The position numbers and the translations under genes are program-made. Below the pieces are notes generated by a model, which had not been told where the DNA came from, did no database searches, and saw only the letters and a list, made by a program, of their open reading frames with translations. A stretch of DNA of 64,000 nucleotides from an uncultured bacterium (GTDB taxonomy: Bacteria > Krumholzibacteriota > Krumholzibacteriia > WVZY01): positions 26,003 to 90,002 of the forward strand of contig CAYXEN010000002.1 of the NCBI GenBank assembly GCA_964464035.1, in the 5' to 3' direction. Positions 613 to 55,218 of the stretch are shown piece by piece. Positions within the stretch are counted from its first letter, which is position 1; each line of letters opens with the position of its first letter.

Positions 613-619
613 CGTCTGC

Positions 620-1936: not shown

Positions 1937-1946
1937 GATTTGCGGA

Positions 1947-2549
1947 TTACAGGTATCCCAAGTCCTTGAGACGCGCCTTGATCTTCTCCTCTTCTTCCTG
2001 GGAGTACTCGCTCTCCGCCGAAGCACCGGGAACGAGCCCCATCAGTTCGAGCGTGCGGATGATCTTGGAAGTGCTCTCCTCGACGGACTCCTTGTCGGAC
2101 TCGATGAGGATCTCGGGGTTATCGGGTTCCTCGTAGGGATCGTCGACCCCGGTGAAGTTCTTGATCTCCCCCGCCAGCGCCTTCTTGTACATTCCTTTGA
2201 CGTCGCGCTCCTTCAAGACGTCGACGGGAGCCTTTACGTAGACTTCGACGAAGTTGTCGATCGAGTTGCGCACTTCGTCCCTAACCGCCTTGTAAGGGGA
2301 TATGGCGGCGGCTATAGCCGCGACGCCGTTGCGGCTGAGAAGCTTACAGACGTAGCCGATACGCTTTATGTTCGTATCCCTGTCTTCCTTGGAGAAGCCC
2401 AAGCCCTTCGATAGATTGGTCCTGACCTCGTCACCGTCGAGCAGCTCCACCTTCACCCCGCGTTCGAGAAGGATTTCCTCCACCTTCTTGGCGAGGGTGG
2501 ACTTGCCTGAACAGGGTAGCCCGGTGAACCACAATGTGAAGCCTTTCAT
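1947..2549 (-). CDS. cysC: Adenylyl-sulfate (APS) kinase
   Basis: 200 aa. P-loop GLPCSGKST. Whole-protein pattern of APS kinase (FTGVDDPYE, ISPYKAVRDEVR). Confidence 0.9.
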   Translation of the reverse strand: MKGFTLWFTGLPCSGKSTLAKKVEEILLERGVKVELLDGDEVRTNLSKGLGFSKEDRDTNIKRIGYVCKLLSRNGVAAIAAAISPYKAVRDEVRNSIDNFVEVYVKAPVDVLKERDVKGMYKKALAGEIKNFTGVDDPYEEPDNPEILIESDKESVEESTSKIIRTLELMGLVPGASAESEYSQEEEEKIKARLKDLGYL

Positions 2550-2595
2550 TTATCGATCCTCCTTGGTGGTTTGTCTCCGATCAGTTCGTCTGGTG

Positions 2596-3984: not shown

Positions 3985-4007
3985 TTTTCCGTCCTTTGCG
4001 ATTCAAA

Positions 4008-30070: not shown

Positions 30071-30086
30071 TGGCATAGGTTTTGCA
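30071..30086 (+). promoter_or_regulatory. Sigma-54 (-24/-12) promoter candidate upstream of the GAF-GGDEF gene
   Basis: TGGCAT-aggtt-TTGCA. GG and GC are separated by exactly 10 nt. About 78 nt upstream of ATG 30164. Confidence 0.45.
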
Positions 30087-36968: not shown

Positions 36969-36995
36969 TTGCAAACGGACAGGTTTGATGATCAA

Positions 36996-38042: not shown

Positions 38043-38084
38043 ACCATTCCCGGCGTTGCGGAACAAGCAAGCAGCAGTGTCGAT

Positions 38085-39377: not shown

Positions 39378-40774
39378 TGGAAAGACGCACGAAATCCATC
39401 GCTCTCATCACGATCGCTGCATCGACCCTGGCTGCGGCGTTCGCCCTGTTGTTGTTGCATTCGGTCAAGATAGGCGTCGCCGCCTATATCGTTGGAGTGG
39501 GAGTGGTGATGCTTCTCATGGAGCCGTTCGTCGGTCTGATAAACTACCTCATATTCCTGTACATTCGACCGCAGGAATTTCTGCCCGGCTTCGTGGGACT
39601 CCCGGTGATGCTCATGATCGGCGGTGCGACTTTCGTGGTCATGCTCATCAATCATGCGATGATGAAAAAAACGCTCGCCATGACGAAGGCGCCGCAGAAC
39701 ATCCTGATGTTGCTTCTCCTGGCCGCCATCGTGATGTCACATCTGAGTCATCTCTATTTGCACGCTGCGATCGATTCCGGACGTGCTTTCCTCAGTACGG
39801 TGGTCATGTATCTGCTAATAGCAAACCTCGCCCTGAGCGAGAGGAACCTGAAGATCACCCTGTACCTGATGACGATACTCACAGTGTTCATGGCTCTTCA
39901 GGGGATAAAACAATACTATACGGGCGTAGGCATAGCCGGCCAAACCCTGATTGAAGGCAGGATAAGGGGAATCGGGATCTTTTCGGACCCGAACGACCTG
40001 GCGCTGACATTCCTCATAGTGCTGCCTTTCGCGTTCTTCACTTTGATCGATTCGAGGAATCTCATGGTGAAGACGACCGCGGTGATCGCGATGGCGGTCC
40101 TCGTCTACGCCCTCTATCTTACCAATTCGCGAGGCGGATTCTTGAGCTTTGGAATGCTCGTGTTCCTGCTCTTCGTGCGTCGATTCGGCCTGATCCCGGG
40201 TCTTGCCGCCGGAGCCGCGATGTTTTTCGTGATGTTCGCGTTCGGTCCGTCCCGGATGTCGGAGCTGTCCCCCGAGGAGGCGTCCGCCTATGGGAGGATA
40301 GAAGCTTGGGGAAGAGGACTGGAAATGCTCCGCGCCAACCCGCTCTTTGGTGTGGGGCAGGGAAGGTTCATGGATTTTCACTTCCGCACCGCGCACAATT
40401 CGTTCGTGCTCTGCGCCAGCGAGTTGGGGCTCTTCGGATTCTACAGCTGGTTGACCTTGTTGTTGATATCGATGAAGAACATGTTCTTCGTCAGCCGCGA
40501 GGCGCGGGCCAACGGAATGCGGGAGAACGCCGTCATAGCGGATTCGATCTTCTTCGCATTCGTGGGATTCCTGACCGCAGCGTTTTTCCTTTCCCGCACC
40601 TACAACGATCTGCTCTATGTGCTCGTGGGATTGAGCGCCGCCGCGACGCAGGTTTTCGTCGCCAGAACCGGCGAGAAATACGTGCTCATGGACAGGAGAG
40701 ACCTGCTGCAGGGATTCGGGCTCATGGTCGGTGTTCTCGTCCTGCTGAAGATCATAGTCATGTTGTACTGGTGA
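39374..40774 (+). CDS. O-antigen ligase / Wzy-like polysaccharide polymerase family membrane protein
   Basis: About 12 TM helices with a large periplasmic loop. Central ...NSRGGFLSFG... and ...AHNSF... motifs resembling the Wzy_C/O-antigen ligase domain. Confidence 0.7.
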   Translation: MMERRTKSIALITIAASTLAAAFALLLLHSVKIGVAAYIVGVGVVMLLMEPFVGLINYLIFLYIRPQEFLPGFVGLPVMLMIGGATFVVMLINHAMMKKTLAMTKAPQNILMLLLLAAIVMSHLSHLYLHAAIDSGRAFLSTVVMYLLIANLALSERNLKITLYLMTILTVFMALQGIKQYYTGVGIAGQTLIEGRIRGIGIFSDPNDLALTFLIVLPFAFFTLIDSRNLMVKTTAVIAMAVLVYALYLTNSRGGFLSFGMLVFLLFVRRFGLIPGLAAGAAMFFVMFAFGPSRMSELSPEEASAYGRIEAWGRGLEMLRANPLFGVGQGRFMDFHFRTAHNSFVLCASELGLFGFYSWLTLLLISMKNMFFVSREARANGMRENAVIADSIFFAFVGFLTAAFFLSRTYNDLLYVLVGLSAAATQVFVARTGEKYVLMDRRDLLQGFGLMVGVLVLLKIIVMLYW

Positions 40775-40778
40775 AGAC

Positions 40779-41927
40779 ATGCATGTAATCATCCTCGTCA
40801 CGTCGGTTCTTGCGCTGGTCTTGCTCGGCGCCCTCGCGCGCAGGAAGAACGTGGACATAATAGTCCTGGGTTCGATCAAGAGACGCCCGCCTCGTTGCGA
40901 CGGGAAGAGGCACGTGTTTTTCTGCTTCGTGGATCACTTCGAACCGATGTGGAAGGGAGCCGATGAGAACTCGGCCCTGGAGAGGGTCCGCATGTGGCTT
41001 TCGAGGTATCCGGTGGTCACGGCGGGGCTCGAGGACGGGGGAGGGCGGCCGCCGCAGCATACCTTTTTCTACCCCGAGGAAGAGTACCACCCGCAATGCC
41101 TGGACATGCTTGCCGAACTCCGGCGCAAGGGCTTGGGCGACGTGGAAATCCACCTTCATCACGACAACGACACTTCGGAATCGCTGCGGGAGAAGCTGCA
41201 GAATTTCAAGGGGGTTCTTCGGCGAAGGCACGGGCTTCTCAGGGAGAATCCCCGAACCGGTGAGATCGAATACGGTTTCATACACGGCAACTGGGCGCTC
41301 GACGACTCCGGGCCGGGTGGAAGGTATTGCGGAGTGCGCGACGAGATCACGATCCTCGAGGAGACCGGTTGTTACGCCGACTTCACTTTTCCGTCGGCGC
41401 CGCATCCGACGCAACCGCCTATGATCAACGTGATCTACTACGCCACCGATGATCCCGTCAAAGCCAAGAGTCATCACCGGGGGCGCGAAGTCGTCTTCGG
41501 CAGGCATACGGGCGGCGATCTCCTCATGATAACCGGCCCGCTCGCCGTGAACTGGAGGCTGCGGAGGCGGGGTATATTTCCCGCCATCGAGAACGGGGAC
41601 GTAACATCGATCAATCCTCCCGTGCCGGCGAGAATCGACCTTTGGGTGAAGACCGCCATCGGCGTGCGCGGTTGGCCCGGTTGGATTTTCATCAAGGTCC
41701 ATACTCACGGAGCCCAGGAAGCGAACTCGAGCTTTCTTCTCGGGGAAGGGATCAAGATGCTGCACGAACATCTAGCGGGGAGGTACAACGACGGTCGGAA
41801 CTACGTGCTCCACTACGTGACCTCGTGGGAAACGGCCAACTGCGTGCGGATCCTGGAAAAAGGGGACAGGGAAGGAATTAGCCTGGTGGAGGCCTTCGAT
41901 TACGACGCGGCCTGGAACCGCATCTGA
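40779..41927 (+). CDS. Hypothetical protein (N-terminal TM; possible divergent carbohydrate-esterase/deacetylase-like fold, unverified)
   Basis: 382-aa ORF translationally coupled to the upstream gene. Conserved-looking Asp/His clusters (FVDHFEP, EIHLHHDND). No confident family assignment from sequence alone. Confidence 0.5.
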   Translation: MHVIILVTSVLALVLLGALARRKNVDIIVLGSIKRRPPRCDGKRHVFFCFVDHFEPMWKGADENSALERVRMWLSRYPVVTAGLEDGGGRPPQHTFFYPEEEYHPQCLDMLAELRRKGLGDVEIHLHHDNDTSESLREKLQNFKGVLRRRHGLLRENPRTGEIEYGFIHGNWALDDSGPGGRYCGVRDEITILEETGCYADFTFPSAPHPTQPPMINVIYYATDDPVKAKSHHRGREVVFGRHTGGDLLMITGPLAVNWRLRRRGIFPAIENGDVTSINPPVPARIDLWVKTAIGVRGWPGWIFIKVHTHGAQEANSSFLLGEGIKMLHEHLAGRYNDGRNYVLHYVTSWETANCVRILEKGDREGISLVEAFDYDAAWNRI

Positions 41928-42064: not shown

Positions 42065-43899
42065 TGCGCGGTGCAGCCGAGAAGTTCATCAAGGTTTGTG
42101 GTTTGGGAGCATTGTTCCTTTTGATTGCCCCCGGTTCCTCATCCATCCGCGCCGTCGAGAAAGGGAACGCCAAGGAGGGCGGCTCGGCCGCAGCGGAAAA
42201 CCTTGCATTTTTGGTTTTCGAGGCGAATCCCGACGCATCATACGACATAGGCAAGAACGGTTCGGGCCTCGTTTCAGTGGTTTCCACCACAAACGGCACT
42301 ATCGGGTTTTCCGACCTCGCCAACACGCTCGATACCTATTCGTTCATTATGACGGGCAGCAACCCACAGCCGCCGTCGGCTCCGAGCGGCCTGACCGTGG
42401 TGGGTGGCGACGCCGGATGCGCGCAGTGTGACTGGTTGCACAATCCCGAACCGAATGTAACCGGATACAGGCTCTATTTCGGGGCATCGTCCGTGGCCCA
42501 AGGCGCCGCGGCCTACGACGACTCGGTCGACGTAACCGGGACGGTTCATTTCAATCTCTGCGGCCTGGTGGAGGGGAACTACTATTTCGCGTTGAGAGCT
42601 ATAAACAGCTTCGGTTTGCTCAGCACCTACTCGCAGGAAGTCTCGGCCTACGTCGGAACGGGATCGGCTCAGGGACCTTCTCCTCCTCAGCAGGTGGGTG
42701 TAGTCGAGAGCACTCCCGGCTGCGCGTCTGTTTCATGGAGCCCCAACTCCGAGGTCGACATAGCCGGCTACATGGTTTTCTACGGCACCGAGAGCGTAGC
42801 GGGCGGAGTGGCGGCTCAATATACGGATTCGCTCGACGCCGGGAACGCCACGGCCAAGACAGTGTGCGGGTTGGCGCCGGGAACATACTATTTCGCCGTG
42901 AAGGCGTACAATACGAGCGGGGTATACAGCGCTTACTCGATCGAGAGGGTGTTGGATGTGCAGGGCGCGGACTTGGCTGCGCCGACTTTTTCGAATCTTT
43001 CTCCTGCAGACGGGAGCATCGGGGTTCCCCTCAACACCGCCGTGGCTTTCACGGTGTCGGATGCGATGAGCGGGGTGGATACGAACAGCGTAGCCGTGCT
43101 CATAAACGGCTCGCCGCCCGCCTCGATCGTTTTCAGCGGGGATGCCGCCGCAACGCACGTGAGCTGCAAGCCGGGCTCGGCTCTGCCGGTTCAGAGCCTC
43201 GTCACCGTATCAGTGACGGCGGGTGATCGCGCGGTGCCCTCCAACGTCGATTCGGTCTCATGGAGTTTCACGACGGGCTCGGGGGCGGACGGCACCCCAC
43301 CGGAGTTCTGTTGCCTGAATCCCGGTTCGGGCAGCGCCGACGTTTCCCCTTCGACGAACATAGTGATCGGGATAAGCGATTCGGAATCCGGGGTCGATCC
43401 GGGAAGCCTGAAGCTCTTCGTGAACGACCTGCCGGCGGATTACACGCTGGAAGGGGACGACAACAAGAACCTCCGCCTGGTTTACGTGAACACGGAAGGG
43501 TTCCCTCTCGGCGAAGTGGTAAGGGTTAGAGTGGATGCCTGCGACCTGGCGTTGCCTGCGAATTGCTCGTCGCTTCTCGATTATTCTTTCACCGTTTCCG
43601 CCACGCCGGACGCGGCCGGCGCGGCCGCCATAGTTCCCGACGGATTCTGGGCCGAAGACCCGACGAAACCGCTCCAGGTCAAGAATATTCCGCTGGGATG
43701 GACGGTCCGCATCTTCGATGTGTCGGGACGCAAAGTCAGAACGTTCAAGAACGAGATGCGCGACGGCCTGGACTGGACGTGGGATTTCAAGAATGACGGC
43801 AATCGCCGGGTGGTTAGATCGTTGTATCTGGTGAGAGTGACCGACGCGAGCGGGCGGGTGAGGCAGGCGGGTAGGTTCCTCGTCCAGAGAGTTCCATGA
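42065..43899 (+). CDS. Secreted multi-FN3-like repeat protein with C-terminal T9SS-type / FlgD-Ig-like sorting domain
   Basis: Start MRGAAEKFIKVCGLGALFLLIAPGSSS (signal peptide) with GAGAGAGG RBS. Repeated ...GYRLYFG...NYYFA(L/V)(R/K)A(I/Y)N... FN3 modules. Last ~80 aa (LGWTVRIFDVSGRKVRTFKN...GLDWTWDFKNDGNRRV...SLYLVRVTDASGR...FLVQR) match the T9SS CTD / FlgD Ig-like pattern. Confidence 0.7.
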
Positions 43900-44747
43900 T
43901 GTACGCTGACGCCAGGGCATGGAGAAGCTCCTTGGGCTTGAAGACGGCTCTTTTCGCGTTGCTCATCCTCGGAGCCTATTGGTTCGTCATCCTCGATCTC
44001 CTGAGGCAACTACTCGAAGATCCAAATTACGCTTATGGATTGTTCGTACCCGCCCTTGCGCTCTTGCTGGCGGTGAGGAGACGCGAACGTTTTAGACGGG
44101 CAGAACCCGGCTCCAGCGCCTTGGGTCTGGTTCTCATACTTCTCGGCGGCCTCGTCTATCTCTTCGGTGTCTTGGCGTCGGAACATTTCACGAGCAGGAT
44201 CTCCATGATACCGGTGTTGGAAGGCGCATTCCTGGTATTGCAGGGCAGGGCGAGAACGCGGGTGATGATCTTCCCGATCCTCTTCCTGGCCTTGATGGTG
44301 CCGCTGCCGTATATAATCTACTACAAGATCACGTTCCCCCTCCAGCTCTTGAGCTCCCGGTTGGCGGAATCATTGATAACGGCGATCGGCATTCCGGTGC
44401 AGAGGTGGGGCAACATGCTCAAGCTCGAAGGTTACACGCTGGAGGTCGTGACGGCATGCAGCGGCCTGCGCTCCATGATGACCCTGGGAACGCTGGCCGT
44501 GTTCATGAGCGAATTTCTCGATCTCAAATGGAGGATGAAGCTGCTTTTCGTCGTTCTCTCGGTGCCGGTGGCCGTAACGGCGAATACCTTGAGGTTGACG
44601 TTCACGGCGGCGCTGGCTTCACTGTCCGATGCGGCGGCGGCGGACGAGTTCCTGCACGACTTTTCGGGACTCGTCGTGTTCGTCCTGGGGGCGATTCTGC
44701 TCGCCGCCTTGGGAATGGGATTTGAATGGTTGGAGAAAAGAGCATAG
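43896..44747 (+). CDS. Exosortase (EpsH/Xrt family transpeptidase)
   Basis: 8-TM protein with catalytic Cys motif VTACSGLRSMM, conserved Arg motif ANTLRLT, and N-terminal ...DPNYAYGLFVP... Confidence 0.8.
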   Translation: MMYADARAWRSSLGLKTALFALLILGAYWFVILDLLRQLLEDPNYAYGLFVPALALLLAVRRRERFRRAEPGSSALGLVLILLGGLVYLFGVLASEHFTSRISMIPVLEGAFLVLQGRARTRVMIFPILFLALMVPLPYIIYYKITFPLQLLSSRLAESLITAIGIPVQRWGNMLKLEGYTLEVVTACSGLRSMMTLGTLAVFMSEFLDLKWRMKLLFVVLSVPVAVTANTLRLTFTAALASLSDAAAADEFLHDFSGLVVFVLGAILLAALGMGFEWLEKRA

Positions 44748-45361
44748 TGTTGGCTGCGGGGGTTCTGCTGTCGCTTCTTGCGGGTGCGGGAAACGTTTAC
44801 AGGTTCGAGACTCCGGGTTCGAAAGCCGGGGACGTCCTGCGAATCGCCGATCTCGATTTCGAGAGTTGTTCGCATGAGGACATCGACTTGGACGAGGCTT
44901 TCGAGCGCAGCCTCGGCGCGGACGACTTCGTTTTCAGAGTGTACAGTTGCGGGGATGGGCGCCCCGTTTGGCTCTTCATAGGATATTTCTCGTCACCCGG
45001 CGAGGGGTCCCAGATCCATTCCCCCAAGCATTGTTACCCCGGCAGCGGATGGAACATACTTGGAGAAAGGCCGGTCCCCGCACCTTGGGGAGAGGGCAGC
45101 ATCAGGGCCCTTTCAGTGAGCAACGGCAGGGCCAGGAGGGGTGTTTTCTATTGGTTCTATACCGGCGATGAAGTGATAAGCGATGAGTACGGGCTGAAGA
45201 TTCATCAGGTCGTGAGCGCGCTCCGGCGGAGGGCTCCGAGCGTTTGCTTCGTCAGGATATCCACCCCGGAACTGGATGCGGGCGAGACAGAATCCATACT
45301 TGCTGAATTCGCCCGCAAGGTGCAGGCTTCACTCGAGAAGGCTTTCAAGGAACGTCGATGA
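44726..45361 (+). CDS. Exosortase-associated EpsI family protein
   Basis: Signal/TM N-terminus, about 210 aa periplasmic domain. Adjacent to and overlapping the exosortase gene as in EpsH-EpsI pairs. Confidence 0.65.
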   Translation: MVGEKSIVLAAGVLLSLLAGAGNVYRFETPGSKAGDVLRIADLDFESCSHEDIDLDEAFERSLGADDFVFRVYSCGDGRPVWLFIGYFSSPGEGSQIHSPKHCYPGSGWNILGERPVPAPWGEGSIRALSVSNGRARRGVFYWFYTGDEVISDEYGLKIHQVVSALRRRAPSVCFVRISTPELDAGETESILAEFARKVQASLEKAFKERR

Positions 45362-46194
45362 CCCTCAAGAGGATCATAAGTAAGTACTTCAGGTGCTGGG
45401 AAGAAACGATCTTGCTCACCAAGCGCCCCGTGCTGCTGCTCCCTTTCATCGTTCTCGCCCTGGTCGAGGTTTCGGTCCTCGTAAGCATAGTATGGTTCAT
45501 CCATCCTCCATTCTCGTTTTTCATGCCGGGCCTGGTGAAGATGATAGCGGGCGAACAGGTTTTGCACTATCCCTCTCACCTCGTCCTGCTTCCCGGCTTG
45601 TATCAACTGATTCTGGCACCCATCATGGTAGTCTTCGGTTTCGCCCTCCTGGGTTGGGGCGTCTTCATGATCATGGATCATTACCGGGGATCGTTGCATG
45701 GAGCGCGGTTCTATCTGGAGACAGTGGCCTGGAACATGCCCGGATTCTCCCTCATAGGGTTGCTGTTCATGGGTTTGGTCGTGGGAGCGCCGCTGGGCCT
45801 GTCCCATGCGGCAGGCTCGCTCGACCCCGGGATTCTGCGAAGCATCGTGGGCGAGTTGAGCGGCGTCTGGGGGTTCGTTTGGGAAGTGTTCTTGATCTAT
45901 GCTCTCGTCTTCATGCGGCTGTATCCTGAGAGCGCGGGAAAGGCGATTGCGAAGGGGTTCGGCTTCGCCAAGAGAAGGTTCATCGTAACGGCTCTCGTCG
46001 TTGCCACCGTCGCTCTGATTCACAAGCCCTTCGAGTACTTGATCTCGAGCGCGACGGCCGTCGCAATAAAATTCAAACCGGAACTGCTCGTGAGCGTGAT
46101 CGTTTTCGACATAATAGCTGAAGTGATCACCAATTATTTCTTGTTCGTGTCCATCTCCTATCTGGCTGCGACCTCGTTATGGAAGCGAAGATGA
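45358..46194 (+). CDS. Hypothetical polytopic membrane protein
   Basis: 278 aa, about 7 hydrophobic segments. Coupled to epsI. Confidence 0.5.
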   Translation: MTLKRIISKYFRCWEETILLTKRPVLLLPFIVLALVEVSVLVSIVWFIHPPFSFFMPGLVKMIAGEQVLHYPSHLVLLPGLYQLILAPIMVVFGFALLGWGVFMIMDHYRGSLHGARFYLETVAWNMPGFSLIGLLFMGLVVGAPLGLSHAAGSLDPGILRSIVGELSGVWGFVWEVFLIYALVFMRLYPESAGKAIAKGFGFAKRRFIVTALVVATVALIHKPFEYLISSATAVAIKFKPELLVSVIVFDIIAEVITNYFLFVSISYLAATSLWKRR

Positions 46195-47741
46195 TATCGA
46201 GAAGAAATATGCTCGTTCTCTTGGCGCTGCTGCTCTCCGGGTGTGGCTCCGGAGAAGACCTTCGTGCGCGGTACAGCCTGGAGCGGGATCTGTGGAACGC
46301 CCAAAGGATAGAGAGAAGGATAAACATCGACCTGCAGGGTGCGTCGGAAAGAGAGATAAAGTTCGCGATACGTGCTTTCGAGGGAATCGTCGCCAAAGCC
46401 GATCTCGAGGGCAAGGACTTGAAGGGATGGGATCCGGGCGTAATCAAGGATATAAAGAGGATAGGCGTGCTCTCCAAGATAGCGTTGGCGAATCTTTACT
46501 TCATCACGGATAAGTACTACCTGGCGGAGAGCTACTACAAGAGCTCCCTTGACGACGAAAACCTCCCTTTCATGAGCAGGATGAACGCGCGATTGAATCT
46601 CGCCCGCTCCTTCTACCTCATGGGTTCGCAGGACTCGCTGAGGATCGAGTGCGAGGCGATATTCAGGGACATAGTCGGCGAGGAGGATTTCTGGCGAAGC
46701 CGTGCAAGGATAAACGACAGTTTCCTGAACATTCCGTTGGTGCTTTTGCGGATCTATAGGAGCAGGGGGGACACGGAGAAGGTGGAGGAATTGGGCGAAA
46801 CCGCAGAGAGATTCTACCGGAAGATAACATTGGTCTGGCCGGGCGAGATGATCGCCGAAAAGGCGAGATTGCAAATGGTGAACTTGTATCTCATCGAGGG
46901 CCGGTGGCGGGAGGCCGTCCGGACGATCGACGATCTTATGGACAGCAGCTTCGGGCGGGCGATGCAGCCCAGGCTTCTCTTGATGAAGGCGAAGATCTAC
47001 TTGAACGGAATGGGCGATCGGGCCAAGGCGAAAGCGACGCTCAAGCGGATCCTGAAGGATAGTGAAAGCATGGATGGGTACTACGCGGCCAAATTCGAGC
47101 TTGCGAACATAAGTTTCTTGGAAGGCGGGGAAGCTGAAGCGATCGAGATGCTCAAGGAGATCGAGAAGAGCAGCGACGCATCGCCGGAAGTAAGAACGAA
47201 CGCGATGCTGGTTCGGGCACTCTACCTGGAAAAACACGATAAATGGAATGAAGCCCGATTGATCCTCAAGCGGATCCAGAGCCTGTACCCGGAGACGATG
47301 GCCGCTCTGAAGGCCCCGCTGCTCATGACGATTCATTACGTCAATGGGGGCGATACGGTCTTGGCTCGGAAGAATCTGGAAACGGCCAGGGAGTTCTACC
47401 TGACGCTGTTGGAAAAGAAGTGGGGGCTGGCGCAGAGATCTCTCTTCGTCCAGGACTTTCTGGTAGAGAACTACATCGCGGCCGGATTGCCGGAGGAAGC
47501 CGCGCGGATCCTGGAAGAGAAATCGAGCGGGTGGGGATGGTCGAACGCGGCGGGCGCGATGCTTAAGAGCGCGGGCATCTATGCCGAGTTGCTGGGCGAC
47601 AAGGAGAAAGCGGCCGAACTGCTCAAAAAATGTATTGCACTTTACCCTGAAACAAGGTATGCGAAAGAGGCCGCCGGCTTGCTGGATAGGCTCGCCGGGC
47701 CGGCATCGAGGAGCGTTTCATCCGGCAGGAACGAAAAATAA
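46191..47741 (+). CDS. TPR-repeat lipoprotein (PrsT-like?)
   Basis: Lipobox LLLSGCGS. Repeated TPR-like helical hairpins throughout (…YYKSSLD…, …LYLIEGRWREAV…, …ALYLEKHDKWNEARL…). Alternative start 46179. Confidence 0.65.
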   Translation: MISRRNMLVLLALLLSGCGSGEDLRARYSLERDLWNAQRIERRINIDLQGASEREIKFAIRAFEGIVAKADLEGKDLKGWDPGVIKDIKRIGVLSKIALANLYFITDKYYLAESYYKSSLDDENLPFMSRMNARLNLARSFYLMGSQDSLRIECEAIFRDIVGEEDFWRSRARINDSFLNIPLVLLRIYRSRGDTEKVEELGETAERFYRKITLVWPGEMIAEKARLQMVNLYLIEGRWREAVRTIDDLMDSSFGRAMQPRLLLMKAKIYLNGMGDRAKAKATLKRILKDSESMDGYYAAKFELANISFLEGGEAEAIEMLKEIEKSSDASPEVRTNAMLVRALYLEKHDKWNEARLILKRIQSLYPETMAALKAPLLMTIHYVNGGDTVLARKNLETAREFYLTLLEKKWGLAQRSLFVQDFLVENYIAAGLPEEAARILEEKSSGWGWSNAAGAMLKSAGIYAELLGDKEKAAELLKKCIALYPETRYAKEAAGLLDRLAGPASRSVSSGRNEK

Positions 47742-47743
47742 AT

Positions 47744-48856
47744 ATGAGCGGAAAATCGATCTACACAATTGCGCTCGCGTCACTCCTGGGCGCGCTTGGG
47801 CCCGCTGCGATGTCCGGGGAGGGTGCGAGAAAACAGTGCCTGACGGTCGTTTCGCAGCCTACGCACGCGAAGATCACGTTGAAGGGCTCGAGGGGAGTTG
47901 CGGGAAGGACGCCGTCCACCTTTTGCATGCTCGAGCCGGGTTCCGCCTATTTTCTCAAGATGGAGAAGAGGGGCTACGAAACGAGGGTGGCGGGCCTGAA
48001 GCTCGATGAGAAGGGAAAAGCCGTACTTCATGGAAGGGCACTCTTGGCGATCGGGAAATCCATGGCCGTGCCCGGGTTGGGCCAGTGGAGCGCGGGGAGA
48101 AAAGGACCGGGCATGGAGGCGTTTCTCACCGTCATGGGTACTTCAGCCATGGCGTGGTTGGCCTATGACGCCTTTCGAGACGAGCGGGACGAATATCGTT
48201 TCTATTTCTCGAAAGCTCAGACTGCGGTAACCATGGATGAGAAAAACGTCTATCTTCGCGAAGCGCGCAGATCGGCCTCCGAAACGAACAGGGCGAGAGA
48301 TCGCGCCATCATGACGGCGGGAATAGCAGGATGGGCATATGTCATGAATGTCGCCGACGCACTTCTCCTCAATCTTGCTCCGGGTGTGCGATACAAGGAG
48401 GGGGGGACCGTGGTATTGTCTTCTCCGCAAAAGAGCATGCCCAGGGCACTCTTGAGATCGGCCTTGTCCCCGGGTATGGGGCAGAGTTACATGGGGCACG
48501 GTTTCAGGGGCTTGTTCTTCCAAACGGCGTTCTACGGGGCGGCTCTCTTTGCGGCGCGGTCCTGGTGGAAGTACGGAATCAAACGGGACAGGTACGACAT
48601 GAAAGTCTCGGAGCTCGCCGCCGCTTCCAGCCTGGACGAAGTTACGCGGATCAGGAACGAGATGAACGTCTCGTGGGACGATCTCAGGGAAGCGGAAAAA
48701 TCGAGAAATGCGGCTCTCGTGACTTTGGGTTCGATTTGGCTGCTCAACATGCTGGATGTGGCGACCAGCAGCACGGGCTTGGAACCCGGCAAGCTGAACC
48801 TGAGTGCGGGATGGAAGGGCGAGGATTACGTTGCCGGTATCGTTTGCTCATTCTAG
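47744..48856 (+). CDS. PEGA domain-containing protein
   Basis: Signal peptide, then TVVSQPTHAKITLKGSRGVAGRTPSTFCMLEPGSAYFLKMEKRGYE (PEGA-like beta-sandwich), then hydrophobic/amphipathic C-terminal region. Confidence 0.55.
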   Translation: MSGKSIYTIALASLLGALGPAAMSGEGARKQCLTVVSQPTHAKITLKGSRGVAGRTPSTFCMLEPGSAYFLKMEKRGYETRVAGLKLDEKGKAVLHGRALLAIGKSMAVPGLGQWSAGRKGPGMEAFLTVMGTSAMAWLAYDAFRDERDEYRFYFSKAQTAVTMDEKNVYLREARRSASETNRARDRAIMTAGIAGWAYVMNVADALLLNLAPGVRYKEGGTVVLSSPQKSMPRALLRSALSPGMGQSYMGHGFRGLFFQTAFYGAALFAARSWWKYGIKRDRYDMKVSELAAASSLDEVTRIRNEMNVSWDDLREAEKSRNAALVTLGSIWLLNMLDVATSSTGLEPGKLNLSAGWKGEDYVAGIVCSF

Positions 48857-48872
48857 AGACCGGAGGTTGGAA

Positions 48873-50423
48873 ATGAGAATCAGATTGTCACTCTATGCCG
48901 CGGCGCTGACACTGTTGGCCTTCGGGGCCGCGGGATGTCTCGAGAAACTGCCCGAGGAGCTGAACGAACCGGTCCCTTCGATACCGACCCCCACCGATCT
49001 TTCCGCGGTCTCCAGGGACGGGGGCGCGACGATTTCATGGAGCTTCGATCAAAGTTTCCAATTCGAGAGCTTCAAGATATATAGGAGCGATGACGATCGC
49101 GCGACGTGGCAGAAAGTGGGAACGACGGCGGCCCCACCCTATGACGATTCCAATCTTAGAAACGGCATAATCTATTGGTACCGCGTCAGCGGCGTGAGTG
49201 TCGACGGCTTGGAGGGGCGTCCTTCCGGTGAGCTGCCCGTCATGGCCAATGCATTCGGCGTCGTCATAAACGACGGCGCGGAATTCACGAGCAGCAGGAT
49301 GGTGACCCTTCGATTCGCGGCGCCGACTCAGACGCAATCTGTGGTTTTCTCGGAGGATTCTCTTTTCCAGGGGGCTCTTCGCGAGGCGTACAATCCAACT
49401 TACCCTTTCGAACTGAGCGGCACGGACGGCGTGAAGCGAGTATACGCGGAGTTCAAGGATGCGTTGGGCAACGTGAGCGGAAAAGTATCCGATTCGATCG
49501 TGCTCGACACGCACGCGGCCATAGACAGCCTCTCGTTCAGTCCCGCCGGCCCGTTCGCGCCCGGGGCCTCGATTCACTTCCGGGTGGTGAGCAAGGGGAG
49601 GGAGGCCGACGGATATGCCTTGATTACGATAGGAGGCGTCGCCGGGCCGATCTACGCGATGGACGACGGCGGTAACGGCGATTCGCAGGCGGGCGACGGC
49701 GTCTGCGAGAGGGATTACGTGTTCATGCAGTCTTTCCGTGGCACCGGCATCAGGGCCAGCGCGGTGTTCATCGACGCCGCCGGCAACGAGAGCGATGCCA
49801 TGGAGTTCCCGGGAGAAATCGATTTCACGGACCCGCCGCAGGCGGTATATCTGTTCCCGGCGGTGGACTCCACGACTTCCAGCATCACTCTGAGGTGGTC
49901 ACAGTCCCAGGATCAACATTTCTCCGATTACGCGGTCTATCGAAGCGAATCCGCCCAGGTGTCGGAGGATTCCTCCCTCAGGGTGGGGCTCGTCTACGAC
50001 AAGGCCACTCAGGAATGGACGGACACCGGTCTCGACGAAGCCAAGACTTACTACTACCGCGTGTACGTGGAAAACGACCTGGGAGAGACGCAGGGGAGCA
50101 ATGTACGTGCGGCTCGAACGCTTGATCTTCCACCCGAACCGGTCGTATGCGATCCTCTCAGTTCCGTGGGCAATGGAAGGGCGACCGTCACATGGAGCGT
50201 CAACAACGATTCGGATTTCCTTGCATACTACGTTTACCGGGATACTATTCCCGGCGTCACCGAAACGACGGGGACCATGGTGTCGCCCGTGATAACGGAC
50301 AGGTACACGACCTTTTTCGACGACAGCGGGCTGGATCTCTTGAACCACACGTATTACTACCGGGTCTACGTGTACGACAAGGGTGGAAACAAGGCGCGAA
50401 GCAACGAGGTGGCTACTCAGTAG
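48873..50423 (+). CDS. FN3-like repeat lipoprotein
   Basis: Start MRIRLSLYAAALTLLAFGAAGC (lipobox) with GGAGG RBS. Several FN3-like modules (FKIYRSDDDRATWQKVGTT...YWYRVSGV; YAVYRSES...YYYRVYVEN; YYVYRDT...YYYRVYVYD). Confidence 0.65.
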   Translation: MRIRLSLYAAALTLLAFGAAGCLEKLPEELNEPVPSIPTPTDLSAVSRDGGATISWSFDQSFQFESFKIYRSDDDRATWQKVGTTAAPPYDDSNLRNGIIYWYRVSGVSVDGLEGRPSGELPVMANAFGVVINDGAEFTSSRMVTLRFAAPTQTQSVVFSEDSLFQGALREAYNPTYPFELSGTDGVKRVYAEFKDALGNVSGKVSDSIVLDTHAAIDSLSFSPAGPFAPGASIHFRVVSKGREADGYALITIGGVAGPIYAMDDGGNGDSQAGDGVCERDYVFMQSFRGTGIRASAVFIDAAGNESDAMEFPGEIDFTDPPQAVYLFPAVDSTTSSITLRWSQSQDQHFSDYAVYRSESAQVSEDSSLRVGLVYDKATQEWTDTGLDEAKTYYYRVYVENDLGETQGSNVRAARTLDLPPEPVVCDPLSSVGNGRATVTWSVNNDSDFLAYYVYRDTIPGVTETTGTMVSPVITDRYTTFFDDSGLDLLNHTYYYRVYVYDKGGNKARSNEVATQ

Positions 50424-50438
50424 CCGGAGACGTTTTTT
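50407..50438 (+). terminator. Possible intrinsic terminator
   Basis: GGCTAC-tca-GTAGCC hairpin spanning the stop codon, followed 7 nt later by TTTTTT. Confidence 0.3.
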
Positions 50439-50541
50439 GCAACACTGCGTCCAGCTCGAAGACGGGGGTCGAGAGGGAATCGTATAATGTTTGTGATTGC
50501 AAGAGGTTACGCTGGCATGCTGAAGTAAATTGGTAAAGACT

Positions 50542-50557
50542 TGGCCTTATAATTGCA
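50542..50557 (+). promoter_or_regulatory. Sigma-54 (-24/-12) promoter candidate upstream of the PorV-like gene
   Basis: TGGCCT-tataa-TTGCA. GG-N10-GC spacing exact. About 60 nt upstream of ATG 50618. Confidence 0.5.
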
Positions 50558-50617
50558 AACACACCAAAGGCCAAGGCAAGGTTTCCCGGTGGTTGACGAC
50601 ATCCAGAGGTTTGCATC

Positions 50618-51943
50618 ATGTTGCTCGAGAGGAAAACCATCAAGGGACTCTTTCTCATAGTCCTCGTCCTCTACCTCTCTCTTCGATCCGGCCCACTGTC
50701 GGCTTCATCTTCTGAAGACGGAACCAGAGCGGCGTCTTTCCTTTTCATTCCCGTGGGAGCCCGGTTGTTGAGCGGGCCGTCCATCCTGGCTCAGATGGGG
50801 CCCGACGCCTCATTGGTGTTCTCCAACCCGTCGGCACTGGCCAAGGTGGAAGGGGGGAACATGTTCCTGACGGGTTCGAACTGGCTGGACGACGTGTCCT
50901 TCAGCGCTTTCGGCATGGTCGTTCCCGGGATTCCGTACGGGTTCAAAGTGGGCATCGGAGCGCGTTTCCTATATTCCGGCGACCTCCAAGGCTACGACGA
51001 TGCTCTATCGGTGGTGAAGAGGAGCAGCTACTACGATCTGGCATTGAATCTGGCCGTAGGGCGCAGCATACCCTGGGCTAACGTAGATCTGGGGCTGGGG
51101 ACGACGCTTCTTCGTGAAAACCTCGCAGGATGGAAGGGCGACGGGTATGCACTCACATTCGGCGCCACGTACCGGCTTCGGGGCAACATAGTGGATCTAT
51201 GGCTGGAAAACATCGGCGGCAAGCTGAATTACAGGGACGTCGGATTCAAGCTCGACCGCAGGCTGAGGCTTGGATACGGCAGACTGCTGACAGTGAAGGG
51301 CGGAAACGTCAGAGTGGGCGGGGAGATGAGCGTATTTTCGTCCGGCACGAAGGAACTCGCTGTCGGCGTGGATTATCTTCTGAGCAGGCATTTCTCCCTT
51401 CGAGCGGGAATGGATCATTCGTTGACTGGATCCGAATCCAGCGGTTTTCCGCTCAAGGCCGGCTTCGGATTCCACACCAGCGGAGTTTCGGTCGACTACG
51501 CCTTCATCTCCCGAAAGTATTTCGCAGGCACGCATACCTTCTCGCTTTCCTTTCCACTCCAGCGCTTCGATGCTTCGGGCGAAAAGCGGGGCGGAGCCGT
51601 CCCGGCCGGTGTTTCGAAGAGTGCCCGTTCGGGCCCCGAAAGGGTCATGCCGGCGGGTCCGGAAAGAACAGCCCTCGAGGATCGACCGCCGCTCTCGCGT
51701 CGGGGCGAGACATCACAGGGGAGCTATTTGATCATCGGCGGCATGCACTCCCGTAAGGAGAGCGCCCAAGCCGAGGTGCAAGCGTTGCGCCGTGAAAACC
51801 TAGCTGCCGTTATAAGGGAAGTCGATGGAAGCTACCTCGTCTCTCTCGGCGAGTATACGGACAAACGCGATGCCAAGAAGGCGCTCGAGCGATTGCGGAG
51901 CGCCGGCTACGACTTCACTCTCTTCGAATTGCCCAGGCACTGA
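50618..51943 (+). CDS. PorV/PorQ-like (UPF0164/FadL-like) outer-membrane beta-barrel with C-terminal SPOR domain
   Basis: Signal peptide. N-terminal motif AASFLFIPVGARLLSGPSILAQMGPDASLVFSNPSAL, characteristic of PorV/LptO-family barrels. Alternating beta-strand pattern. C-terminal SYLIIGGMHSRKESAQAEVQALRREN...VSLGEYTDKRDAKKALERLRSAGY matches the SPOR fold. Confidence 0.55.
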   Translation: MLLERKTIKGLFLIVLVLYLSLRSGPLSASSSEDGTRAASFLFIPVGARLLSGPSILAQMGPDASLVFSNPSALAKVEGGNMFLTGSNWLDDVSFSAFGMVVPGIPYGFKVGIGARFLYSGDLQGYDDALSVVKRSSYYDLALNLAVGRSIPWANVDLGLGTTLLRENLAGWKGDGYALTFGATYRLRGNIVDLWLENIGGKLNYRDVGFKLDRRLRLGYGRLLTVKGGNVRVGGEMSVFSSGTKELAVGVDYLLSRHFSLRAGMDHSLTGSESSGFPLKAGFGFHTSGVSVDYAFISRKYFAGTHTFSLSFPLQRFDASGEKRGGAVPAGVSKSARSGPERVMPAGPERTALEDRPPLSRRGETSQGSYLIIGGMHSRKESAQAEVQALRRENLAAVIREVDGSYLVSLGEYTDKRDAKKALERLRSAGYDFTLFELPRH

Positions 51944-52279: not shown

Positions 52280-53068
52280 ATGACATATCAAACAATCAGA
52301 AAATCTCTGGGTTCCCTGCAGGTCAGATGGATCGGTCCCGGGGTCCTGGAGAGGAACAGATTCGTCGTTACGAAACGCGAATTCGACAGGACGTATTTCG
52401 CCCTGTGGAAGAGGTTCATAGATATTGCTTTTAGCCTGGCTGCAATCATCCTTCTATCTCCCTTGATGGTTATCACCGGGGCGTTGATCCGGTTGACGTC
52501 CCCCGGACCGGTCATATACAAGCAAGAGCGGATAGGGATCAATCGCAGGGTCGGTGAACGCCGCAGACGGTACGGGGGAAAGACGATCGGAGAGCGGAGA
52601 AGAAGGAAGGACAGGAGAGTACTGGCTAACTACGGGAAGCCGTTCTTCATCTACAAGTTCAGAACCATGTACGAGTCGTCGGAGGGCGGCAAGCCCCAAT
52701 GGGCCATAAAGGACGATCCCAGGATCACTCCTCTGGGGAAGATTCTCAGAAAGACCAGGATCGACGAATTGCCGCAGTTTTTCAACGTTCTCAAGGGTGA
52801 CATGAGTCTGGTCGGTCCCCGACCGGAGAGGGCGTTCTTCATCGGAAAAGTCGAACATGAAATCCCCGAGTTCCAGCTCCGCCTGCGGGCGAAGCCTGGC
52901 ATAACCGGGCTGGCGCAAGTCCGTCTGGGATACACCAACAACACCGAGGGGCTAAAGAAGAAACTCCGCTTCGATCTCGAGTACATAAGCAGGCTCAGTT
53001 TCTGGTCCGATTTCAAGATCATGCTCAAGACGATCGGTGTGGTCTTGACCGGCAAAGGCGCATGTTGA
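52280..53068 (+). CDS. Polyprenyl-phosphate sugar phosphotransferase (bacterial sugar transferase, WbaP/EpsB C-terminal domain type) with Arg-rich insertion
   Basis: TM anchor, KQERIG...GKPFFIYKFRTM...DELPQFFNVLKGDMSLVGPRP signature. A roughly 28-aa insertion NRRVGERRRRYGGKTIGERRRRKDRRVLANY splits RIG and GKPF. Confidence 0.85.
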   Translation: MTYQTIRKSLGSLQVRWIGPGVLERNRFVVTKREFDRTYFALWKRFIDIAFSLAAIILLSPLMVITGALIRLTSPGPVIYKQERIGINRRVGERRRRYGGKTIGERRRRKDRRVLANYGKPFFIYKFRTMYESSEGGKPQWAIKDDPRITPLGKILRKTRIDELPQFFNVLKGDMSLVGPRPERAFFIGKVEHEIPEFQLRLRAKPGITGLAQVRLGYTNNTEGLKKKLRFDLEYISRLSFWSDFKIMLKTIGVVLTGKGAC

Positions 53069-53160: not shown

Positions 53161-55218
53161 ATGCCTAGATTCTACACTATCATCCATTATGCCGCCTATG
53201 GCGCGTTCCTGGCGATCATCGCCGCCCTCGTTCCATGGTACGCTTTTCTCGTCATCGCCGTGGCTTTTTCCGTTCTCCATGCGGTCTTCGTGTACAGAGG
53301 GAAGAAAAAGCGTTTCGATGAGCTTTTGCAGCACTTGAAAAACCTTCCGGGTGAAGCCGCACCGCCTCTCGATCTAAGCACGAAATCCAAGGACATCGAT
53401 CAGCAGATTTTCCACCACTTCAGGGAAGTGGCGTCCGAGCTCGAGAAAAAATGCTATCAGCTCGTTGAAAAGAACATTCAACTCTTGAGCATGAAGGAGT
53501 TGGGGTTGACCATCATATCCTCGGTGAATGAGGAGAAAGTGGTGGAGTCGGTCGAGAATTTTCTGTCGAAGGGCCTGGGGTTCAAAGAGCTGATCATTGC
53601 CATCTTCGACAACAACGAGAAGGCGTTCAACATGCATTTCTACAGGGACGCCCTGGGCAGGATAGATCAAAGGAGCGAGCTTGTAAGGCTTGGATCCCTG
53701 GAGTACATGCTTGCCAGGGCGATCATTTCCAGAAGGGCCCTTCTCATAAGGGATCCGGAGACGCATCCTCTCGGATCGATCGACGGCAGGATGATATTCG
53801 GTGACAGCACCATGAGTTCGTTCGTGCTGGTTCCTATGGTGAGGAGCACTATCGCCCTCGATTGTTGGAAAGACGAGAAATGCCTTCGCTCCGGAGAAGA
53901 AGTGGGGTTCGACACCGAGCTGGATCCCGAGATTTGTCCGGAGTGCATCAACTTCCCGATACTGGGAGTCATCGGTGTGACCGACGGGTTCAGGGCCGAG
54001 GGTTTGAGTAACGTCGATCTCGTGTCGGTGGAGACTCTCGCCCTGCAGGTCAGCACGATCCTCGAGAACACGCACCTCTACAACGATCTCAAGAAGGAAG
54101 AAACGTTTCGTGACGACGTCATCAACGGCATGACGAACGGACTCATAAGCGCCGACGTGGACGGAGAGATCGTGCTCGTGAACCAGGCGGCGGAGAACCT
54201 GTCCGGATTCACGGCCGACGAGTTGAGGGGCAGATCCTTGGACGAGATCATCATAAACGGGGGAAGGGAGAACGGAAAGGGGCCCATAGAACGCAACTTG
54301 AAAAGCGGAAGACGAAGTTTCCAGGAAGAAGCATGGCTGGTTAGAAAAGACGGGGACAGGATACCCATCATATTGAATACTTCTTTTCTGCTCGATAGTG
54401 ACGGCAATATCAACGGGATATTGGCATTGTTCTACGATCTGACCCAGATCAAGTTGATGGAGAAGAAGATTGCGCACCTCGACAAGTTGGCTGCGCTGGG
54501 GCGCTTCTCTTCGAGCATCGCGCACGAGATACGCAACCCGCTGGCGGGAATAGCGGCGGGGATACAATACATAAAACGAACGAGCGAATTGAGCGATGAA
54601 CAGAATGAGAACATATCATTCATCCTGAAGGAAGTCAGCAGGATAGATAGATTGATCGGCGATCTCATGAACGTGGTCAAAGAGGGCGATCTGATTTATC
54701 AGAAATCAAGCATTGAAAAGATCGTAGAAGATTGCATAAAGAGCCTCGATGAGCTCATAAGATGCAAGAGGGTCCGTATCAACCGGGCGTTCCCCGAGAA
54801 GAGCATGGAGGTGGACATCGACCGGGACCGGATCACACAGGTGTTCATGAACCTCATCAAGAACGCCGTAGAGGCCAGCGCAGACGGCGGGGAAGTGGAC
54901 ATCGAGGTTTCTTTCCCCAAGTTCGGCGGGGAGGTTTTGTTTGACCGCATAGGGGATTATGTTATGATAAAAATCAGGGATAGAGGGGTGGGGTTGTCGC
55001 GCGAGGAAAAGGAAAGACTATTCGAGCCCTTCTTCTCAACCAAACAAAACGGCGTCGGATTGGGTCTCTATGTCACCCACAGCTTCGTGGAGCGGCATGG
55101 AGGCTCGATCTTCGTGGAGAGTGAAAAAGGGAAGGGAACCACGTTTTCCGTCTATATACCCACAGAGAGGGCCGAGCATGGAACAGCAGGTAAAATCCGT
55201 CATCCTCTTGGTGGATGA
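53161..55218 (+). CDS. Sensor histidine kinase (2 TM, GAF, PAS, HisKA, HATPase_c); PrsK-like
   Basis: HisKA H-box RFSSSIAHEIRNPLAGI. N, G1 and G2 boxes (NLIKNAVEAS, DRGVGL, GVGLGLYV). PAS (NGMTNGLISADVDGEIVLVNQAA). GAF with Cys-rich insert. ORF is open from TTG 53155. Confidence 0.85.
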   Translation: MPRFYTIIHYAAYGAFLAIIAALVPWYAFLVIAVAFSVLHAVFVYRGKKKRFDELLQHLKNLPGEAAPPLDLSTKSKDIDQQIFHHFREVASELEKKCYQLVEKNIQLLSMKELGLTIISSVNEEKVVESVENFLSKGLGFKELIIAIFDNNEKAFNMHFYRDALGRIDQRSELVRLGSLEYMLARAIISRRALLIRDPETHPLGSIDGRMIFGDSTMSSFVLVPMVRSTIALDCWKDEKCLRSGEEVGFDTELDPEICPECINFPILGVIGVTDGFRAEGLSNVDLVSVETLALQVSTILENTHLYNDLKKEETFRDDVINGMTNGLISADVDGEIVLVNQAAENLSGFTADELRGRSLDEIIINGGRENGKGPIERNLKSGRRSFQEEAWLVRKDGDRIPIILNTSFLLDSDGNINGILALFYDLTQIKLMEKKIAHLDKLAALGRFSSSIAHEIRNPLAGIAAGIQYIKRTSELSDEQNENISFILKEVSRIDRLIGDLMNVVKEGDLIYQKSSIEKIVEDCIKSLDELIRCKRVRINRAFPEKSMEVDIDRDRITQVFMNLIKNAVEASADGGEVDIEVSFPKFGGEVLFDRIGDYVMIKIRDRGVGLSREEKERLFEPFFSTKQNGVGLGLYVTHSFVERHGGSIFVESEKGKGTTFSVYIPTERAEHGTAGKIRHPLGG

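Follow-up and report, generated by a model that had tools for sequence, protein, structure and literature searches.

A variant type IX-like C-terminal tag and a SPOR-bearing PorV/PorQ-family barrel share a divergent exosortase exopolysaccharide locus

Exosortase/PEP-CTERM sorting and the sorting of C-terminal domains (CTDs) by the secretion system of type IX (T9SS) are treated as separate protein-sorting systems. Exosortase substrates are thought to be held in the inner membrane by a transmembrane helix and a basic tail, and to our knowledge the route by which exosortase products cross the outer membrane is not known. In the T9SS, the CTD is retained in PorZ and PorU, which are seated on PorQ and PorV, respectively; the T9SS protein PorE and OmpA-type barrels link the outer membrane to peptidoglycan. 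In Flavobacterium johnsoniae, type-B CTDs are genetically linked to cognate PorP-SprF shuttles, and the partner sets the final location of the protein (PMC12618676). XrtA-type exosortase substrates are reported to be typically dispersed around the genome (PMC1569441), and a conceptual connection of exosortase loci with the attachment chemistry of the T9SS has already been the subject of speculation (PMC7468200). We analyzed a 64,000-nucleotide stretch of contig CAYXEN010000002.1 from an uncultured bacterium of the Krumholzibacteriota (the window), in which a secreted protein with a variant T9SS-like CTD (the tag), an exosortase and a PorV/PorQ-family outer-membrane barrel fused to a SPOR domain are encoded within one exopolysaccharide (EPS) gene cluster (Table 1).

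The reading that we consider best, and to which we give about even credence, is that tag and barrel form a cognate tag-anchor pair resembling PorZ-PorQ, tethered to peptidoglycan and encoded in a divergent XrtA-type EPS locus, with an exosortase that is optional and acts separately. It is favored because the pairing of tag and barrel outlasts both the loss of the exosortase and the exchange of the passenger protein, and because it matches the biology of PorZ and PorU.

The locus shares elements with each of the systems described above. As in the PorQ-PorZ and PorV-PorU pairs of the Porphyromonas gingivalis T9SS, the barrel is a 14-stranded member of the PorV/PorQ family, and the β-sandwich CTD of its partner is proposed to stay attached and to dock on it; the best fold match of the tag is the CTD of PorZ, and PorU is matched as well. 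Unlike in those pairs, the barrel carries a SPOR domain, present in none of the matched solved chains of the PorV/PorQ family, the passengers are FN3/Big_5 or lyase-like proteins instead of PorZ or PorU, the genes lie within an EPS/exosortase locus of a lineage outside Bacteroidota, and neither partner reaches equivalog cut-offs. The type-B CTD/PorP-SprF pairs also join a specialized CTD subfamily to its own outer-membrane partner, but the tag described here is related to type-A/FlgD-Ig domains, and its partner belongs to the PorV/PorQ family and is probably tethered to peptidoglycan. An outer-membrane component with a periplasmic peptidoglycan-binding domain is likewise found in OmpA-type barrels and PorE, from which the present protein differs in having SPOR rather than OmpA_C and a 14-stranded barrel of the PorV/PorQ type. 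With the XrtA/PEP-CTERM EPS system (Haft et al. 2006, PMC1569441), the locus has in common the exosortase, EpsI, a TPR lipoprotein, a PrsK/PrsR-like sigma-54 two-component system, a Wza-like exporter, a chain-length determinant, a Wzy_C-like ligase and a priming transferase. By contrast, the accessory models of the XrtA system and the XrtA exosortase model all score below their equivalog cut-offs here, no PEP-CTERM protein was found in the window or in the related loci screened, and the slot that holds a PEP-CTERM protein in a sister clade is taken by the T9SS-like-tagged protein.

The tagged protein contains FN3 (36.9 bits) and Big_5 (47.7 bits) domains behind a signal-peptide-like N-terminus, and its orthologues sit upstream of the barrel gene in related loci. 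An earlier note on this DNA had described its C-terminus as a T9SS/FlgD-Ig-like domain, an assignment that holds at the level of profile and fold but not in single-sequence comparisons with curated models. The last 91 residues scored 17.6 bits against TIGR04183 (cut-off 23) and 14.6 bits against FlgD_ig PF13860 (cut-off 27), gave sub-threshold matches to the CTDs of PorU and PorZ, and had no match to PF18962. A search of PDB sequences with the tag profile returned nothing significant. The AlphaFold2 model of the tag (pLDDT 94.7) is a seven-strand β-sandwich, for which the best PDB match found with Foldseek is the CTD of PorZ (5m11; E = 1e-4, TMq 0.66). The next matches are FlgD, the translocon-bound CTD of a T9SS substrate, PorU (6za2) and the CTD of RgpB (5ag8), with 8gl8_D among them. 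An hhalign comparison with an alignment of canonical NxPNPF CTDs gave a probability of 97.2% (E = 3e-11, 71 columns) and placed IVPDGFW opposite NYPNPF, in a test that is partly circular, as four of the six canonical CTDs in the template had been found by the tag profile itself. Because structure and profile comparison agree, the tag is assigned to a distinct subfamily of the T9SS type-A/FlgD-Ig CTD, the homology of which is visible only at the profile and fold level.

The sequence of the tag is very strongly conserved among orthologues, with the consensus IVPDGYWAxDPxRPLEVRNLPxGWTVRIFD...WTWDFxND...ALYLVRV...GRFLVQ. When the tag profile was searched against 1.84 billion representative proteins, 50 clusters were retrieved at E < 1e-30, followed by a clear score gap, below which lie giant proteins with repeated FlgD-Ig-like domains. 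The match is full-length and at the extreme C-terminus in 48 of these clusters, in proteins of 88 to 1749 aa; the remaining two are giant proteins with repeated partial matches. The passengers vary and include Big_5, fn3, right-handed β-helix/Pel9A-like, NosD, FG-GAP, heparinase II/III, PKD and laminin-G proteins, and PF13860 is matched by 9 of 35 family members (E <= 1e-3). The tag thus behaves like a modular sorting or anchoring signal. It has no transmembrane helix or basic tail on which an exosortase could act. The idea that its IVPDG motif is itself an exosortase-type (VPEP-like) signal was considered and rejected, since the motif aligns with NxPNPF and is equally conserved in loci that lack the exosortase.

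Two further observations concern the tag family. A sister group of tags (P0100, P0110, P0113), located at the extreme C-terminus of proteins of 418-1301 aa, carries IWPPGVL as its N-terminal motif, and its members terminate in (Y/K)YLRR where the tag has GRFLVQ; it may constitute a second specialized tag family. In one related locus (L005), both canonical and variant tags occur: a 1924-aa protein that combines Flg_new_2 repeats with a canonical Por_Secre_tail (PF18962)/FlgD_ig CTD (1-4854) is encoded directly upstream of the variant-tag gene, and this canonical CTD matches the tag hidden Markov model (HMM) at E = 1e-3. The 1924-aa protein points to ordinary T9SS cargo in this lineage.

The barrel protein consists of the barrel itself (residues ~36-314), a disordered linker of ~50 residues and a SPOR domain (~368-441). 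The earlier proposal of a PorV/PorQ-type barrel fused to SPOR is borne out by a match to nearly the full family profile, by the fold and by the SPOR score, but none of the barrel family cut-offs is reached. Against NF033709 (PorV_fam), positions 1-324 of the 326 in the profile are matched with 75.9-77.3 bits (cut-off 90). The scores against PorQ (NF033711; 60.7 bits, cut-off 220) and PorV (NF033710; 13.5 bits, cut-off 250) place the barrel nearer PorQ than PorV. The SPOR domain scores 32.9 bits against PF05036 over residues 378-432 (gathering cut-off 21). About 25 homologues with 31-37% identity have the same arrangement of barrel, disordered linker and SPOR, the linker being Pro-rich in most, and the two that carry names come from Candidatus Krumholzibacteria. 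All 22 homologues tested match PorV_fam (best E 1e-30) and PorQ (best E 4e-24), and fewer match PorV proper. SPOR is retained in 22 of 22 aligned homologues, with the modeled order β-α-β-β-α-β expected for this domain. The AlphaFold2 model of the barrel protein has 14 strands; its pLDDT is 75.7 for the whole chain and mostly 80-95 within the barrel. The PDB entries that match it best are the PorV chains 8gl6_F and 6h3i_F of the F. johnsoniae translocon (E = 4e-10 and 3e-9; TMt 0.61-0.64), and FadL-type barrels are the next-best fold matches. Because the number of strands is even, the C-terminus of the barrel is predicted to be periplasmic, so that SPOR would be able to reach peptidoglycan. Such a tether is more in keeping with a fixed anchor than with a mobile shuttle. 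Both families, that of the tag and that of the barrel-SPOR protein, are compact and well defined and could become annotation models.

Related loci were collected in two ways and numbered ~45 overall, all from one broad lineage. A scan of one genome per GTDB species with the barrel yielded 21 loci, all of them from metagenome-assembled genomes of Krumholzibacteriia or Latescibacterota, and further contigs came from exact look-ups. The tag gene precedes the barrel gene in 13 of the 14 loci with enough upstream DNA and accompanies it in 19 of 20 evaluable loci (the 13 of 14 derived from GTDB, L027 and five metagenome loci). Exosortase and EpsI are encoded in only 8 of the 14. Seven barrel loci lack both genes (L005, L006, L012, L013, L017, L025 and L027). 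L006 is found in CP070677.1 and the exosortase-positive locus L014 in OY970173.1, and L033 and L042 come from contigs of 986 and 419 kb. Among these, L012, L013 and L017 keep the tag gene, the membrane protein, the TPR protein and the barrel; L005 and L025 keep the tag gene and the barrel; and in L027 the barrel is paired with a Pel9A-like β-helix protein that bears the same tag. The tags of the exosortase-less loci are nearly identical to those of exosortase-bearing close relatives. A search of a literature library turned up no account of exosortases in combination with T9SS components in these phyla, of a fusion between PorV/PorQ and SPOR or of the tag subfamily; the earlier note had likewise known of no description of the combination.

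A 117.7-kb contig of JGI sample 3300042731 carries an enlarged EPS locus with a second confirmed variant-tag protein (P0035, 1014 aa, FG-GAP passenger). Two β-helix proteins nearby (1202 and 504 aa) may also carry the tag, and the locus further includes an Asn-synthase-like gene and a polysaccharide deacetylase. One barrel can therefore have several tagged proteins encoded around it.

The exosortase and EpsI genes lie between those of two FN3 proteins, as the earlier note had it, and their products pass their family models. The exosortase has the ACSGLR motif, and C188, R233 and H254 are invariant in eight aligned orthologues, which at the sequence level is consistent with function where the gene is kept. 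It reaches no named subtype: XrtA (TIGR03109) scores 168 bits against a cut-off of 208, XrtD scores 184 against 400 and covers the N-terminal half only, and the other 20 subtype models are all far below cut-off. The polytopic 278-aa membrane protein encoded after EpsI has no family match, even at E <= 1. It is kept in several loci without exosortase and EpsI, and weak homologues are found at this position in the sister clade described below. Its candidacy as a cryptic exosortase substrate was rejected, as it is polytopic and present in loci without exosortase.

No PEP-CTERM tail was found with regular expressions on window open reading frames (ORFs) of at least 50 aa, as the earlier note had stated, nor in L001-L027 (~360 kb) and 18 loci of the exosortase clade of the window (135 kb), ~560 kb in total including the window. 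The screen relied on regular expressions, not on the TIGR02595 model; the same kind of expression found 24 genuine tails in related exosortase clades. TIGR02602, which the earlier note had listed as a PEP-CTERM model, is the exosortase model.

In a metagenome scan with an alignment of exosortase orthologues, 80 loci were retrieved, and a neighbor-joining tree of their exosortases, midpoint-rooted and without bootstrap, divides them into three groups. In the clade of the window (G1), the exosortase gene directly follows the tag gene in 17 of 17 evaluable metagenome loci, and the barrel follows wherever downstream DNA suffices. The start of the exosortase overlaps or abuts the TGA stop of the tag gene in all 25 exosortase-positive loci (ATGA in 18, GTGA in 4 and CTGATG in 3). 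The sister clade G2 has the order exosortase, EpsI, membrane protein, TPR protein, histidine kinase and sigma-54 response regulator, and neither barrel nor tag is present in its loci. Directly upstream of the exosortase in eight G2 loci is a gene for a ~240-aa protein with a textbook PEP-CTERM tail (...ATPEPGTLSLLGLGLLG..PLLRKKK), an arrangement that looks like a one-to-one exosortase/substrate system. In the outgroup G3, mostly from soil, a PEP-CTERM protein is encoded just after EpsI in ~16 loci. The G2 PEP-CTERM family, with the mature N-terminus AVPRLQTYIVGS, was noted in L046-L055, L062, L063, L068 and L088 (for example L052, 6984-7757, and L055, 7135-7821). A derivation of the FN3 protein from this PEP-CTERM protein by a swap of tails was rejected, since the two show no homology (hhalign probability 0.2%).

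Taken over these loci, the association of the tag with the barrel is more constant than that with the exosortase, and both are real. Part of the synteny reflects shared ancestry, since the compared loci form one broad lineage.

According to the favored reading, the tagged protein would cross the inner membrane via Sec and the outer membrane through a T9SS-type translocon encoded elsewhere. The retained tag would then dock on its cognate barrel, as does the CTD of PorZ on PorQ and that of PorU on PorV, and SPOR would hold the complex on peptidoglycan, as a static anchor within the EPS layer and not a mobile shuttle. The pair would thus display Ig-like stalks or polysaccharide-active enzymes in this layer under sigma-54 control. 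The exosortase, EpsI, the 278-aa membrane protein and the TPR lipoprotein would represent an inherited XrtA-type module with conserved catalytic residues, translationally coupled to the tag gene; this module would be dispensable for the pair and would most likely act on other substrates or on EPS-linked acceptors. The identities of the domains, the modularity of the tag, the synteny counts and the promoter are established by the comparisons above, while the docking of the tag, the use of a translocon and the role as an anchor are what we infer. The proposal in the earlier note of a joint EPS-exosortase and PorV-dependent attachment route is retained in that the two sets of genes are co-located and the tag-barrel pair is conserved, but its shuttle gives way to a fixed anchor. 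If correct, this arrangement would extend the idea of a dedicated tag and outer-membrane partner, so far demonstrated for the type-B CTDs of Flavobacterium, to the PorV/PorQ family and to phyla other than Bacteroidota, and fusion to SPOR would be a novel means of attaching such a partner to the cell wall.

Several findings weigh against this reading. The docking of the tag on the barrel rests on analogy and synteny, and both proteins fall below curated family cut-offs as single sequences. One locus (L006) has the barrel but no tag gene within 10 kb. The universal overlap or abutment of tag stop and exosortase start, together with the PEP-CTERM protein in the same slot of G2, argues against a mere bystander role for the exosortase. 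Finally, the barrel is linked just as tightly to the priming sugar transferase, the gene of which follows it in every related locus with downstream DNA, so that a role in EPS is possible.

One alternative starts from this last point and takes the barrel for a part of the EPS pathway, for example a conduit or an anchor in the outer membrane that serves EPS or an intermediate linked to lipid. The barrel would then have no specific relation to the tag and would co-occur with it by vertical inheritance of one cluster. We regard it as unlikely. The single lineage of the compared loci would allow the synteny to be a product of common descent, the barrel of L006 stands without a nearby tag gene, and FadL-type barrels follow PorV among the fold matches. 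However, the window already encodes a Wza-like OPX protein, which has a hydrophobic segment at its C-terminus, HMM and fold comparisons point specifically to PorV/PorQ and not to known EPS porins, and the pairing tracks the tag rather than the passenger, as seen in L027. Moreover, in structure the tag comes closest to the CTD of PorZ, and PorZ is the ligand of PorQ.

Another alternative, about as unlikely, is that exosortase and EpsI act on or with the tagged protein, for example by joining it to EPS or a lipid-linked glycan or by handing it to the barrel, and that the tag has replaced a PEP-CTERM signal. The earlier note had likewise taken the 629-aa protein as the apparent cargo of the exosortase. 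In favor of this are the position of the tag gene immediately upstream of the exosortase in 25 of 25 clade loci, the canonical PEP-CTERM protein in exactly that slot in eight loci of the sister clade and just after EpsI in the outgroup, the lack of PEP-CTERM tails in the ~560 kb screened against 24 genuine tails elsewhere, and the invariant catalytic Cys, Arg and His in aligned orthologues. On the other hand, the N-terminal motif of the tag aligns with the T9SS motif NxPNPF and not with PEP, the passenger is unrelated to the PEP-CTERM protein of the sister clade, and tag and barrel persist in six loci without exosortase and EpsI (L005, L012, L013, L017, L025 and L027) with tags nearly unchanged from those of close relatives. 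Direct chemistry between exosortase and tag is less likely because the tag has no membrane anchor and the pair persists without the enzyme. We consider it equally improbable that one exosortase clade exchanged its PEP-CTERM partner for a protein with a T9SS-like CTD, such that exosortase/EpsI, tag and peptidoglycan-tethered barrel make up a single hybrid pathway. If true, this pathway would couple inner-membrane exosortase chemistry (EPS or glycolipid attachment) to T9SS-style outer-membrane display, and would for the first time connect the two major C-terminal sorting systems of Gram-negative bacteria functionally.

Least probable, though by a small margin, is an assembly of three independent neighbors, with the tagged protein on a general T9SS PorV, the exosortase serving scattered PEP-CTERM proteins and the barrel-SPOR protein as a generic OmpA-like tether, which would suit the sub-threshold single-sequence scores of tag and barrel and the reported dispersal of XrtA-type substrates (PMC1569441), but not the tight conservation of the tag as a subfamily with a clear score gap from other FlgD-Ig domains, its linkage to the barrel across passengers and in loci with and without exosortase, or the translational coupling to the exosortase wherever the latter is present.

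Beyond the choice of reading, the lineage offers a natural experiment, in which the PEP-CTERM protein of one clade and the T9SS-like-tagged protein of its sister occupy the same slot, and the exosortase has been lost repeatedly.

The sigma-54 promoter that the earlier note had placed before the barrel gene recurs in related loci. The element TGGCC-N6-TTGC precedes the barrel gene by 64-86 nt in 27 of 33 scored locus entries; 31 of the 33 contained the barrel start, and some were duplicate copies of one contig. Its conservation across orthologues that are ~30-37% identical and the sigma-54 activator encoded in the locus make this promoter assignment well supported on sequence grounds. A second good -24/-12 match, TGGCATAGGTTTTGC, is located at 30071-30085, ~90 nt upstream of the GGDEF gene; since it precedes that gene, cyclic di-GMP synthesis and the EPS genes may share sigma-54 control.

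Table 1. Positions of the main features in the window and their best model matches (nt, nucleotides; aa, amino acids).
Feature	Position	Strand	Remarks
GGDEF diguanylate cyclase	30164-31222	+	Opens the EPS cluster
Wza-like outer-membrane polysaccharide export (OPX) protein	33615-34589	+	Poly_export and SLBB domains; best NCBIfam TIGR03027, 116 bits (cut-off 180)
Chain-length determinant	34603-36282	+	Best NCBIfam TIGR03007, 136 bits (cut-off 279)
Two glycosyltransferases, Wzy_C protein and 382-aa protein	36969-41927	+	Order kept in related loci
Wzy_C/O-antigen-ligase-like polymerase	39374-40774	+	Best match TIGR03097, 82 bits (cut-off 188)
Conserved 382-aa protein	40779-41927	+	Adjoins Wzy_C in all related loci
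Secreted FN3/Big_5 protein with variant C-terminal tag	42010/42064-43899	+	629 aa from TTG 42010; 611 aa from ATG 42064
Variant T9SS-like CTD (tag), IVPDGFW...GRFLVQRVP	43624-43896	+	Residues 539-628 of the 629-aa ORF
Exosortase, XrtA/XrtD-like	43896-44747	+	PF09721, 214 bits; TIGR02602, 170 bits (cut-off 105.6); start overlaps tag-gene stop (ATGA)
EpsI	44726-45361	+	TIGR02914, 96.7 bits (cut-off 42.8); PF11984, 119 bits
Polytopic membrane protein, 278 aa	45358-46194	+	Ends in transmembrane helix and WKRR; conserved after EpsI
TPR lipoprotein	46179-47741	+	Lipobox LLSGC; TPR families; position conserved
PEGA and DUF5683 membrane protein	47744-48856	+	DUF5683, 48.6 bits; PEGA, 20.4 bits (cut-off 20.8)
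Second FN3 protein, 516-aa lipoprotein	48804/48873-50423	+	fn3, 47.2 bits; lipobox AAGC
Sigma-54 -24/-12 promoter element TGGCCTTATAATTGC	50542-50556	+	77 nt upstream of barrel start codon
PorV/PorQ-family 14-strand outer-membrane barrel, linker and SPOR	50618-51943	+	
Priming polyprenyl-phosphate sugar transferase (Bac_transf)	52280-53068	+	PF02397, 217 bits; TIGR03025, 292 bits (cut-off 295.6); TIGR03013, 226 bits (cut-off 393)
PAS histidine kinase, PrsK-like	53161-55218	+	TIGR02916, 112 bits (cut-off 300)
Sigma-54-dependent response regulator, PrsR-like	55178-56599	+	TIGR02915, 394 bits (cut-off 502.6)

The genes between 30164 and 56599 constitute one EPS cluster, all on the + strand, the 5' part of which encodes the GGDEF protein, a nucleotide-sugar dehydrogenase and an epimerase. 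As part of the favored reading, the locus is viewed as a sigma-54-controlled Wzx/Wzy-type EPS cluster of divergent XrtA/PEP-CTERM-system ancestry. The XrtA-system models TIGR03027, TIGR03007, TIGR03097, TIGR03013, TIGR02916 and TIGR02915 are the closest functional relatives of most components, and all score below the equivalog cut-off; TIGR03027 and TIGR03007 are the models for the export protein and the chain-length determinant of the XrtA/PEP-CTERM system, respectively.

Two genes upstream of the barrel represent optional modules. The PEGA/DUF5683 gene is present in only some related loci, and that of the 516-aa FN3 lipoprotein co-occurs with DUF5683. The tag HMM gives no match to this lipoprotein, which therefore has no C-terminal tag. 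The conserved 382-aa protein has no Pfam or NCBIfam match, even at E <= 1. It also occurs in a distant soil exosortase locus (L103, 15600-16718; 282 bits) and resembles a widespread, uncharacterized EPS-locus protein. The ORFs of the kinase and the regulator overlap by ~40 nt from ATG 55178, or by more if the regulator starts at ATG 55070, and they overlap likewise in related loci.

Genes for ATP sulfurylase, APS kinase and three Phosphodiest (alkaline-phosphatase superfamily) proteins are found near the EPS locus, both in the window (620-5168, - strand) and in L108 (1-6449), and L027 has a sulfotransferase gene inside its EPS cluster. Together, these genes hint at a sulfated polysaccharide. 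Set against L001 and L108, the window covers two separate JGI contigs (Ga0434945_001451 and Ga0434945_000032) from sample 3300038380; it represents another, more contiguous assembly of the same population.

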